Source of the DNA: Escherichia coli
GTDB taxonomy: Bacteria; Pseudomonadota; Gammaproteobacteria; Enterobacterales; Enterobacteriaceae
Direction: 5' to 3' (one strand)
DNA length: 64,000 bases
NCBI RefSeq assembly: GCF_024700885.2
Contig: NZ_CP117016.1
The position numbers and the translations under genes were made by a program. A model generated the notes under the pieces. It was not told the origin of the DNA and did not search any database. It worked only from the letters and a program-made list of their open reading frames with translations. This document shows positions 48,240-63,336 of this stretch, piece by piece (position 1 is the stretch's first letter; each line of letters begins with the position of its first letter).

Positions 48240-48310
48240 ATCCTACCCTCTCCTCACGGAGAGGGTTTGGGTGAGGGAAAAGCCTCACCCCAGCCCTCTC
48301 GGGTAAAAAC
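48240..48310. repeat. Intergenic palindromic repeat units between mtlA and mtlD
   Basis: ccctctcc-tcac-ggagaggg and gggtgagg…cctcaccc hairpins. Confidence 0.5.
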
Positions 48311-60676: not shown

Positions 60677-61863
60677 TTATTTCCGCAGCCAGCGATTATC
60701 GCGCCGCAGCACAACGCATTCTGCCGCCGTTCCTGTTCCACTATATGGATGGGGGTGCATATTCTGAATACACGCTGCGCCGCAACGTGGATGATTTGTC
60801 AGAAGTGGCGCTGCGCCAGCGTATTCTGAAAAACATGTCTGACTTAAGCCTGGAAACGACGCTGTTTAATGAGAAATTGTCGATGCCGGTGGCGCTGGCT
60901 CCGGTGGGTTTGTGTGGCATGTATGCGCGTCGTGGCGAAGTTCAGGCTGCCAAAGCGGCGGATGCGCATGGTATTCCGTTTACTCTCTCGACGGTTTCCG
61001 TTTGCCCGATTGAAGAAGTCGCTCCAGCTATCAAACGTCCGATGTGGTTCCAGCTTTATGTGCTGCGCGATCGCGGCTTTATGCGTAACGCGCTGGAGCG
61101 AGCAAAAGCAGCGGGTTGTTCGACGCTGGTTTTCACCGTGGATATGCCGACACCGGGCGCACGTTACCGTGATGCACATTCTGGGATGAGCGGCCCGAAC
61201 GCGGCAATGCGCCGCTATTTGCAGGCGGTGACGCATCCGCAATGGGCGTGGGATGTGGGCCTGAACGGTCGTCCACATGATTTAGGTAATATTTCGGCTT
61301 ACCTCGGCAAACCGACCGGACTGGAAGATTACATCGGCTGGCTGGGGAATAACTTCGATCCGTCCATCTCATGGAAAGACCTTGAGTGGATCCGCGATTT
61401 CTGGGATGGCCCGATGGTGATCAAAGGGATCCTCGATCCGGAAGATGCGCGCGATGCAGTACGTTTTGGTGCTGATGGGATTGTGGTTTCTAACCACGGT
61501 GGCCGCCAGCTGGACGGTGTACTCTCTTCCGCTCGTGCATTGCCCGCTATTGCGGATGCGGTGAAAGGTGATATTGCCATTCTGGCAGATAGCGGGATTC
61601 GTAACGGGCTTGATGTCGTGCGTATGATTGCGCTCGGTGCCGACACCGTACTGCTGGGTCGTGCTTTCCTGTATGCGCTGGCAACAGCGGGCCAGGCGGG
61701 CGTGGCAAATCTGCTTAATCTAATCGAAAAAGAGATGAAAGTGGCAATGACGCTGACTGGCGCGAAATCGATTAGCGAAATTACGCAAGATTCGCTGGTG
61801 CAGGGGCTGGGTAAAGAATTGCCTGCGGCACTAGCTCCGATGGCGAAAGGGAATGCAGCTTAA
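60673..61863 (+). CDS. lldD: FMN-dependent L-lactate dehydrogenase
   Basis: 396 aa; alpha-hydroxy-acid oxidase family (…SNHGGRQLD…). Confidence 0.95.
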
Positions 61864-61886
61864 GGGTTAGACGAATATCTGCTATC

Positions 61887-61909
61887 CTGCCCCCGCACTA
61901 AGGGGGCAG
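61887..61909 (+). terminator. GC hairpin between lldD and trmL, overlapping the trmL ribosome-binding region
   Basis: ctgccccc-gcactaa-gggggcag ends 2 nt before the trmL ATG. Confidence 0.35.
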
Positions 61910-61910
61910 T

Positions 61911-62384
61911 ATGCTAAACATCGTACTTTACGAACCAGAAATTCCGCCAAATACTGGCAACATCATCCGTCTTTGCGCTAATACCGGCTTTCGTCTGCAT
62001 ATCATCGAACCAATGGGATTTGCCTGGGACGATAAGCGCCTGCGCCGCGCGGGGCTGGACTATCACGAGTTTACCGCCGTTACGCGTCATCATGACTATC
62101 GCGCGTTCCTCGAAGCAGAAAATCCCCAGCGCCTGTTTGCCCTCACCACGAAAGGTACGCCTGCTCACAGCGCCGTAAGCTATCAGGATGGCGATTATCT
62201 GATGTTCGGCCCGGAAACACGCGGCCTGCCAGCAAGCATTCTTGATGCCCTGCCCGCTGAACAAAAAATTCGCATTCCAATGGTGCCGGACAGCCGCAGC
62301 ATGAACCTGTCCAATGCGGTGTCGGTCGTGGTGTATGAAGCCTGGCGGCAGCTGGGATATCCGGGAGCGGTGTTGAGAGATTAG
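61911..62384 (+). CDS. trmL: tRNA (cytidine/uridine-2'-O)-methyltransferase (SpoU/TrmL)
   Basis: 157 aa; SPOUT methyltransferase motifs (…[11 protein letters not shown]…); position. Confidence 0.9.
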
Positions 62385-62391
62385 TTACTGT

Positions 62392-62423
62392 ATGCCGGAT
62401 AGATGATTACATCGCATCCGGCA
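62392..62423. repeat. REP-type palindrome between convergent trmL and cysE
   Basis: tgccggat…atccggca inverted repeat. Confidence 0.5.
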
Positions 62424-62436
62424 CAATCACAGGACG

Positions 62437-63258: not shown

Positions 63259-63336
63259 TGCTTACTCCACACGATGAGATAATGACCGGCCCGTTCTGCG
63301 CGGGCCGGGTCATAGCGGTAACAAAGTTCCCTGGGA

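Follow-up and report, generated by a model that had tools for sequence, protein, structure and literature searches.

A conserved hairpin overlapping the Shine–Dalgarno sequence and a putative promoter of trmL in Enterobacterales

The insertion sequences IS10 and IS50 are said to protect themselves against outside transcription by 'fold-back inhibition', reportedly described by Davis, Simons and Kleckner in 1985 and by Krebs, Schulz and Reznikoff in 1986–91. By analogy with these elements, the trmL locus of Escherichia coli appears to carry an inverted repeat that spans the start site of the resident promoter, such that RNA entering from outside, which would contain both arms, would occlude the ribosome-binding site, and resident RNA, which would contain the distal arm only, would be translatable. 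In contrast to the transposase genes of the insertion sequences, trmL is a core housekeeping gene, and its cassette has been kept by vertical descent throughout an order, with compensatory substitutions. The trmL arrangement would also go beyond IS10 and IS50 in two respects that we infer for this locus, namely the disposal of the foreign transcript by Rho and the use of the stem as a 3′ cap for the upstream mRNA.

In IS200, a terminator against impinging transcription is combined with a separate hairpin that sequesters the Shine–Dalgarno (SD) sequence (PMC4513863). Levy et al. (2017; bioRxiv 10.1101/086108) reported a short pyrimidine-rich anti-SD motif in sigma-54 promoters, located no more than 25 nt upstream of the SD sequence, which they proposed to base-pair with the ribosome-binding site and so keep the next gene silent on read-through RNA. 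The arrangement predicted for trmL resembles these sigma-54 insulators, in that an anti-SD embedded in a promoter would silence the downstream gene on read-through RNA. However, the elements of Levy et al. are CT motifs of 3–5 nt that were studied in synthetic libraries and are preferentially associated with sigma-54, whereas trmL has a perfect stem of 8–11 bp and what appears to be a sigma-70 extended −10 promoter.

The pyrC and pyrD leaders offer another comparison. As in these leaders, the C-run of the discriminator that follows the putative −10 element of trmL forms the 5′ arm, the SD sequence forms the 3′ arm, and formation of the hairpin would depend on where the RNA starts. In pyrC, however, both RNAs come from one promoter and begin 2 nt apart, whereas the two RNAs of trmL would come from different promoters, and small shifts of the start are predicted to have a negligible effect. 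Finally, Dar and Sorek (2018) described Rho-dependent transcripts that are trimmed by 3′ exonucleases and end precisely at a stable stem without a U tract, with the rut site downstream. Our search of the literature found no paper describing such an arrangement for trmL.

The trmL hairpin and the conserved motif that overlaps it

The DNA analysed here is a 64 kb stretch of the E. coli genome, referred to as the window. Its plus strand carries lldP-lldR-lldD-trmL, followed by convergent cysE and gpsA, and the identities of LldD and TrmL were confirmed by NCBIfam. The 47 nt spacer between lldD and trmL reads gggttagacgaatatcTGcTATCCTGCCCCCgcactaaGGGGGCAGt. The features of this region are listed below.

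61861–61863, plus strand: lldD stop codon TAA, 23 nt upstream of the 5′ arm
61880–61888, plus strand: putative extended −10 element TGcTATCCT, with the TG at 61880–81 and the hexamer TATCCT at 61883–88
61887–61894, plus strand: 5′ arm of the hairpin, CTGCCCCC, which is also the last 2 nt of the putative −10 hexamer plus a G+C-rich discriminator
61895, plus strand: predicted transcription start of trmL, a G that is 7 nt past the −10 hexamer and opens the loop, giving a 16-nt leader
61895–61901, plus strand: hairpin loop GCACTAA, 7 nt, which varies across species in length (3–9 nt) and in sequence
61900–61906, plus strand: SD sequence AAGGGGG, 4 nt before the ATG, its five G's being the inner part of the 3′ arm
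61902–61909, plus strand: 3′ arm of the hairpin, GGGGGCAG
61911–62384, plus strand: trmL ORF, 157 aa, a match to the TrmL equivalog

A preliminary description of this DNA had noted the stem ctgccccc/gggggcag at 61887–61909, and these coordinates proved exact. It placed the stem 2 nt before the trmL start; the stem does adjoin the start codon, but the gap is the single base T61910 between the end of the stem and the ATG (61911–61913), a trivial difference. The stem-loop is G+C-rich, and seven of the eight pairs of its perfect stem are G–C. Folded as a 27-nt RNA segment, the hairpin has an energy of −18.1 kcal/mol (z = −3.6), and none of 200 dinucleotide shuffles was as stable. In a 77 nt context the stem was kept and the additional pairs G61881–C61914, C61882–G61913, A61884–U61912 and U61885–A61911 were formed; these take in the A, the U and the G of the start codon, so that the AUG is partly paired too. 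AAGGGGG is the sole SD-like sequence in the lldD–trmL spacer.

The window holds several times as many perfect GC-rich stems (8 bp or longer, loop 3–10 nt) as first-order Markov simulations do, with eight distinct stems (10 overlapping hits) observed against 1.5 ± 1.3 hits simulated. The hairpin upstream of trmL is real and is not a chance feature. A search of the site with Rfam covariance models gave no match, even at E-values of up to 10. An RNA thermometer of the ROSE or fourU type, which would mask the SD sequence with an imperfect stem of marginal stability that melts at 37–42 °C, was rejected, since a perfect, G–C-rich 8-bp stem with this folding energy at 37 °C is too stable.

At its distance from the 5′ arm, a ribosome terminating at the lldD stop codon cannot reach the hairpin. 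Outside the hairpin region the lldD–trmL spacer is polymorphic: it measures 47 bp in the window, 72 bp in one strain and 185–197 bp in O157 and K-12, where the greater length is due to two inverted boxC-type repeats (named 'HPGQ' by Kaplan et al.).

In an alignment of 43 species, the near-invariant columns upstream of the hairpin read T-x-T-G-x-T-A-T-x-C-T, and the columns farther upstream were unconserved. T−12, A−11 and T−7 were invariant, and the TG at −15/−14 was at least 90% conserved. We read the conserved motif TGnTATnCT, in which exactly the positions critical to sigma-70 are fixed, as a putative sigma-70 extended −10 promoter. The last two bases of the hexamer TATCCT are the first two of the stem, the element abutting and overlapping the 5′ arm. 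No conserved −35 element was found in the 43-species alignment, and a consensus promoter scan, which demands a −35 match, made no call at the site. The missing −35 fits the extended −10 type, as well as an upstream sequence that differs even among E. coli alleles. The conserved putative promoter that overlaps the 5′ arm was absent from the preliminary description.

The primer JW10180, with which Adams et al. (2021) covered the 'entire 5′ UTR' of trmL, starts GCACTAAGGGGGCAG, at the base equal to 61895, K-12 position 3781199; the TSSs in that study were taken from the dRNA-seq data of Thomason et al. (2015). As the 5′ arm consists of the end of the −10 hexamer plus the discriminator, it lies upstream of trmL's own predicted start site, occupying −8 to −1 relative to G61895, a TSS predicted from the cloning primer together with −10 geometry. 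The remaining forward primers of Adams et al. likewise begin where the 5′ end of the transcript is known; that for cspG, for instance, begins at the cold-box sequence. In all 51 distinct species variants, the first base of the 5′ arm lies at −1 to +5 nt relative to the end of the hexamer and that of the loop at +3 to +11, in most cases +5 to +11, and RNA from the embedded promoter would accordingly lack all or most of the 5′ arm. The mRNA made from trmL's own putative promoter should lack the 5′ arm and keep its SD sequence open.

Conservation of the hairpin and covariation between its arms

A near-identical copy of the hairpin was present in 5420 of the 5426 complete E. coli genomes, and a 54 nt segment (61878–61931) showed at least 99% identity in 5342 of the 5420 that matched. 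When one genome was scanned for each species, 80 TrmL loci were obtained, about 50 of which were from Enterobacterales and had a common layout directly before the ATG: the conserved motif (consensus ttTCTGCTATtCT) leads without a gap into a hairpin of −9 to −21 kcal/mol, and the SD sequence makes up the 3′ arm. In some 50 species of the order, the hairpin is thus flanked by a TGnTAnnCT motif on one side and the ATG on the other. The SD sequence coincided with the 3′ arm in every species, with the end of the stem −1 to +7 nt from the AUG, and z was below −2 for the hairpins of 40 of the 43 species sequences.

The upstream gene was co-oriented at 48 hairpin-bearing loci and encoded CpxA in 29, LldD in 14 and an MFS protein, an aromatic-acid transporter, in five; downstream of trmL, a convergent cysE was present in 56 loci. 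Since the layout is the same behind cpxA, lldD or the MFS gene, the cassette belongs to trmL and not to lldD, and the tie to lldD that had been drawn in the preliminary description does not hold. The cassette was absent from Pasteurellaceae, in which the rsmD stop codon lies 8–9 nt before the trmL ATG, and from Xenorhabdus, in which the stop codon of the upstream ORF overlaps the trmL start codon (ATGCTAA); in these taxa trmL is simply operon-packed against the upstream ORF. Two Yersinia species with a divergent ada upstream had the weakest hairpins of the set, at −9.4 kcal/mol. Photorhabdus has a strong hairpin though the nearest called upstream ORF (of at least 100 aa) ends approximately 700 nt away, and this case counts against a model in which the hairpin filters read-through transcripts, a weak point of the account that we favour below.

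RNAalifold predicted no consensus structure from a MAFFT alignment of the 43 species, because the G-runs align by sequence and leave the 3′ arms 1–3 columns out of structural register. Since the stems differ by internal indels, any alignment by columns would have presupposed the structure; covariation was assessed instead by permutation of cognate and non-cognate arms, by a table of pairs anchored on the −10 hexamer, and by comparison of sense and antisense folds. The mean pairing energy of cognate arms was −16.6 kcal/mol, compared with −14.0 kcal/mol for non-cognate arms, and none of 20000 permutations reached the observed value. Counted from the gap-free 5′ side, the third base beyond the −10 hexamer formed a C–G pair in 15 sequences, G–C in 24 and G–U in two, and the pair that follows was C–G in 30, G–C in nine, G–U in two and U–A in one; the species are related and not independent, so that covariation events are fewer than these counts, and per-sequence folds are biased towards pairing. 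At least four lineage-specific double changes were found, from C–G to G–C in Erwiniaceae and from C–G to U–A separately in Rahnella, Tatumella and Photorhabdus. A further symmetric difference, the 2 nt 'CG' in each arm, separates stems of the E. coli type (CUG-CCCCC / GGGGG-CAG) from those of the Edwardsiella type (CUGCGCCCCC / GGGGGCGCA). For 36 of the 43 sequences, folding of the sense RNA was more favourable than that of the antisense RNA (Wilcoxon p = 1.3e-6), and G–U pairs were present in 23 of 43 stems. These comparisons of sequences argue that selection acts on an RNA hairpin of the sense strand and not on duplex DNA or an operator for a protein.

It could be argued that the pairing is a coincidence, in which a G+C-rich discriminator (GCCCCC or GCGCCCC) kept for ppGpp-sensitive stringent control happens to face a G-rich SD sequence, and the hairpin either has no function or is a DNA hairpin or operator. 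A C-run and a G-run are complementary by default, and C-rich discriminators resemble those of rRNA-type promoters. In published data, the mRNA of yibK, another name of trmL, was 0.65-fold in a 6S RNA mutant, dropping together with the ribosomal-protein mRNAs. Coincidence of this kind is nevertheless very unlikely to explain the stem, as pairs outside the C-run/G-run core co-vary too (Erwiniaceae, Rahnella, Tatumella, Photorhabdus and the Edwardsiella type), the cognate arms win in 20000 of 20000 permutations, the G–U pairs and the greater stability of the sense fold favour sense RNA, and the sequence and spacing of the half-sites are too variable to be recognized by one conserved DNA-binding protein. 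Growth-rate or stringent control might nonetheless be a further effect of the G+C-rich discriminator.

Three further candidates were rejected. The variable half-sites and spacing exclude a DNA operator, and a terminator for antisense transcripts is excluded by a minus strand without a U tract and by the weaker antisense fold. TrmL needs a full-length tRNA with i6A37, and autoregulation by TrmL through a mimic of the anticodon stem-loop was dismissed on the grounds that neither the length (3–9 nt) nor the sequence of the loop is conserved.

Access to the Shine–Dalgarno sequence, RNA 3′ ends and Rho

The predicted accessibility of the SD sequence differed between the two RNAs. In trmL's own RNA, taken to start at 61895, the probability of being unpaired was 0.2–0.57 for the SD G's, and opening the ribosome-binding region cost 7.4 kcal/mol; in read-through RNA from lldD, the corresponding probability for the GGGGGCAG/SD G's was 0.00, and opening cost 18–22 kcal/mol. 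At 0.2–0.57 for the G-run, the own transcript is not fully open. The gap in opening cost was found beyond E. coli in Serratia, Pantoea, Edwardsiella, Rahnella and Erwinia, the ranges across the six species being 7–10 kcal/mol for own RNA and 14–21 kcal/mol for read-through RNA.

As is characteristic of SD-sequestering hairpins, in which the SD sequence and/or the AUG is paired in a stable local structure, both elements are engaged here, and the 8 nt from the 5′ arm (61887–94) to the G-run (61902–06) fall within the approximately 25 nt upstream of the SD sequence in which an anti-SD is expected. The preliminary description was right that the stem includes the trmL SD sequence, as the five G's of AAGGGGG lie in the 3′ arm and are predicted to be fully paired in read-through RNA. 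It had also suggested that the hairpin limits trmL translation from read-through transcripts; SD masking is indeed predicted there, but trmL's own mRNA should escape it.

The layout of the region also matches that of a pyrC/pyrD-type switch, with a C-run 6–7 nt after the Pribnow box, then a G, and the SD sequence in the complementary arm. In such a switch, a nucleotide-pool-sensitive choice between C and G starts within the C-run would set how much of the 5′ arm the trmL mRNA contains. However, moving the start between +6 and +9 changed the predicted opening energy by 0.1 kcal/mol in E. coli and by no more than 2 kcal/mol in the five other species, and two extra C's would yield just a 2-bp stem in E. 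coli, and we regard a switch of this type as highly improbable.

Published K-12 data bear on transcripts that cross the hairpin, the sequence of which is identical in K-12 and in the window. The relevant positions are as follows.

61914, plus strand: site equal to the K-12 Term-seq 3′ end 3781218, which is the fourth nucleotide of the ORF and lies 5 nt beyond the stem
61890–61997, plus strand: C-rich, G-poor stretch (C/G 1.7–1.8), a candidate Rho loading (rut) region
62070–62177, plus strand: second C-rich stretch (C/G 1.7–1.9), with the strongest K-12 Rho read-through signal just downstream

The Term-seq 3′ end at 3781218 has a score of 1468, compared with 1018 for the 'primary' lldD 3′ end in the boxC repeat. 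Its intrinsic-terminator score is 1.92, below the threshold of 3.0, and its Rho score of 3.68 is flagged as significant, the reads upstream and downstream being 425 and 96 without treatment and 942 and 784 with bicyclomycin. The strongest Rho signal of the region in K-12 (score 8.4) is at 3781497, 283 nt into trmL, which corresponds to approximately 62193 in the window. An RNA that ended 19 nt from the trmL start would not be recoverable by Term-seq, and these 3′ ends must come from transcripts initiated upstream, which supports the existence of read-through transcripts.

Like an intrinsic terminator, the hairpin is a G+C-rich stem-loop downstream of a stop codon; unlike one, it lacks a U tract and is associated with Rho. 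The tail after the stem, UAUGCUAA, has three U's in its first 8 nt, and a U tract (at least five U's in eight) was present in only eight of the 51 species variants, although the stems of Serratia and some Pantoea are followed by U-rich tails such as UUUUUAC. A terminator scan, which demands a U tract, made no call at the site. A canonical intrinsic (Rho-independent) terminator was rejected on the missing U tract, the score below 3 and the association with Rho in the published K-12 data. The lldD terminator proposed in the preliminary description can be kept in a Rho and exonuclease sense only: the upstream RNA does end here, 5 nt past the stem by Term-seq, but not by intrinsic termination.

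The hairpin shares with the protective stems of Dar and Sorek a stable stem free of U-rich sequence, a steady-state 3′ end directly downstream, C-rich, rut-like sequence next to it, and Rho-dependent read-through. It differs from those stems in that it contains the SD sequence of the next gene and overlaps the putative promoter of that gene; trimming back to the stem by PNPase and RNase II, as in those transcripts, may produce the 3′ end at trmL. These likenesses raise the question of whether the hairpin is only a 3′-end element of the upstream gene, ancestrally cpxA, acting as a terminator or an exonuclease block, with the overlap of the SD sequence a by-product of tight packing. The mapped 3′ end 5 nt after the stem, the U-rich tails of Serratia and some Pantoea, and the precedent of the protective stems speak for this reading. 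Yet a U tract is found in so few variants, and once lldD or the MFS gene had become the upstream neighbour, it was trmL and not cpxA that retained the hairpin. In K-12, moreover, lldD has a 3′ end of its own before the hairpin is reached, in the boxC repeat, and the hairpin is nonetheless unchanged, and a pure 3′-end element would not need a 3′ arm that is the SD sequence everywhere, with a stem end held at −1 to +7 nt from the AUG. That the hairpin is a 3′-end element and nothing else seems unlikely to us, although this explanation partly overlaps with the one that we favour, filtering by transcript origin, rather than excluding it.

A further published result concerns a transcriptional lacZ fusion of trmL made by Adams et al., with an insert beginning at GCACTAAGG (the TSS). 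This fusion showed no Rho effect (1.0–1.4-fold), which the authors called unexplained, given the strong genomic Rho score. The fusion began at the TSS and was thus without the 5′ arm, and filtering by transcript origin predicts exactly this lack of Rho dependence. One inconsistency is a weak point: the filter of Adams et al. should have dropped a 3′ end 19 nt from that TSS. The 3′ end 3781065 was kept, which implies a further TSS within 200 nt upstream, and some trmL-directed transcripts may begin upstream and carry the hairpin.

If all trmL mRNA began upstream, whether by read-through from lldD or at an upstream start site, the hairpin would be a constant throttle that keeps TrmL low at all times, and TGcTATCCT would be conserved for some other reason, such as a single-stranded region for RNase E or for ribosome standby. 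The cell's demand for TrmL is low and the SD sequestration is strong, both of which are consistent with a throttle, as is the additional TSS upstream of 3781065 that the filtering rules imply. Against it, the positions critical to sigma-70 (−12T, −11A, −7T and the TG) are fixed or nearly so and their neighbours vary, the 5′ UTR as published begins 7 nt past the hexamer, and an opening cost of 18–22 kcal/mol would nearly abolish the translation of a conserved housekeeping gene. In addition, trmL is catalogued as its own one-gene operon, RegulonDB-derived tables listing it as 1/1 and lldD as 3/3. We consider a constant throttle quite improbable.

Possible filtering of trmL expression by transcript origin

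We propose that the hairpin and the embedded promoter probably form a single cassette that filters trmL expression by transcript origin, a reading in which we have moderate confidence. RNA polymerase bound at TGcTATCCT would start at approximately G61895, within the loop, and make a 16-nt leader that has the SD sequence, lacks the 5′ arm and is translatable. RNA from the co-oriented upstream gene, lldD here and cpxA in most other Enterobacterales, would carry both arms and fold into the hairpin of −18 kcal/mol, burying the SD sequence and part of the AUG, such that trmL would not be translated from it. The untranslated, C-rich RNA of the 5′ coding region of trmL would then be open to Rho, and transcription would stop inside trmL. 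Trimming by 3′ exonucleases back to the hairpin would leave the stem as a stable terminus for the mRNA of the upstream gene. The steps of this scheme that we infer are the precise position at which transcription starts, the silencing of translation and a causal connection with Rho. Lesser lines of support are the listing of trmL as a one-gene operon, the weak hairpins of the Yersinia species beside ada, and the packing of trmL against the upstream ORF in taxa that lack the cassette.

The class of mechanism is known from transposons and from sigma-54 promoters; what is new is a well-conserved example at a sigma-70 housekeeping gene, and not a new principle. A more general reading, which is speculative and on balance rather unlikely, is that the trmL cassette is the first recognized housekeeping case of a general design, in which a sigma-70 discriminator is selected as an anti-SD, a transcript can be translated or not according to the promoter it came from, and foreign transcripts are cleared by Rho polarity. 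If this were true, similar unannotated cassettes might precede many genes that lie directly downstream of regulated operons. In a weaker variant of that reading, the choice of start within the C-run may tune TrmL synthesis to nucleotide pools, as in pyrC.

Filtering by transcript origin would offer a testable account of a published anomaly, the strong genomic Rho signal at trmL alongside a TSS-started fusion without a Rho effect. It also carries a caution for annotation: without a known start site, a hairpin that covers an SD sequence cannot be taken to mean that the gene's own mRNA is repressed. The proposed cassette would unite a promoter, an anti-SD, an SD sequence and a 3′ cap for the upstream mRNA in 40 nt. 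With such a cassette, a small housekeeping gene could sit 35–50 nt behind strongly regulated operons, such as the lactate-induced lldPRD and the envelope-stress-induced cpxRA, without inheriting their regulation.

Length alleles of the lldD–trmL spacer

The spacer between lldD and trmL varies in length within E. coli (window 61864-61886; 463-647 and 463-534 in L001 and L002, comparison trmL loci of other strains; 69-265 in L083, the K-12 locus). A 47-bp spacer is carried by the window, the GTDB E. coli representative and E. albertii, a 72-bp spacer by one strain, and spacers of 185-197 bp by O157 and K-12. The long alleles contain two inverted, G/C-rich, boxC-like repeats, for which the name HPGQ 43/44 has been given (Kaplan et al. 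2016). Homology between the alleles restarts at 61878, immediately 5' of the trmL -10 element. Elsewhere in the window, two neighbouring stems resemble the boxC/HPGQ repeats found in the long spacers of other strains:

48246-48290, two perfect 8-bp G/C stems, CCCTCTCC..GGAGAGGG and GGGTGAGG..CCTCACCC

In the E. coli collection, partial copies of lldD also occur on plasmids (18 places, for example NZ_CP076705.1 46485-46572). These fragments cover part of the query, and the trmL cassette, comprising the extended -10 promoter and the hairpin over the Shine–Dalgarno sequence, is missing from them.

Published K-12 3' ends and holoenzyme binding

According to their stated filter, Adams et al. discarded 3' ends lying ≤20 nt from a transcription start site (TSS). 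The Term-seq end at 3781218 (L083 269) was kept, though it lies 19 nt away from where their own trmL 5' UTR primer begins, an inconsistency in the filtering. Retention of the end at 3781065 (L083 116) implies a further TSS ≤200 nt upstream, in the 3' end of lldD or in the spacer. In Genomic SELEX, the RpoF and RpoE holoenzymes bind the K-12 lldD–yibK (trmL) spacer in vitro, with intensities of 9.2 and 10.8 (PMC5493296); we assumed that the position reported there, 3779166, follows the older U00096.2 numbering. A text-match count found no occurrence of yibK in the text of the RpoD holoenzyme paper.

Palindromes flanking cysE

Two further palindromes lie downstream of trmL, on either side of the convergent cysE gene:

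62394-62424, REP-like palindrome tgccggat...atccggca between trmL and cysE
63283-63311, minus strand, 10-bp G-C hairpin gacccggcccg...cgggccggtc in the gpsA–cysE spacer

The first overlaps a weak Rfam match to the REP-derived naRNA4 (62393-62428, E = 0.077), which is far under the gathering score. The second has no U tract, is positioned 24 nt upstream of the cysE ATG and is preceded by gcTATGAc. A very strong K-12 Term-seq 3' end (3782582, score 46938) falls directly after it. The gpsA–cysE hairpin is possibly a further case of a Rho-type 3' end capped by a stem right before the next gene.

The trmL locus in other taxa

In taxa without the promoter–hairpin cassette, trmL is packed into an operon. 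The stop codon of the upstream ORF overlaps the trmL start in Xenorhabdus (ATGCTAA; L051 and L052, 1430-1510), and 8-9 nt separate the end of rsmD from the trmL ATG in Pasteurellaceae (L058-L060, L063, L068 and L074; 1480-1503). Three Serratia loci (L042, L045 and L033) are the hairpin-bearing loci that lack cysE ≤1.5 kb downstream. In these, UUUUUAC comes after the equivalent hairpin (about 1470-1500), which gives the hairpin the look of a canonical terminator. The cassette may thus function in Serratia as a genuine intrinsic terminator.
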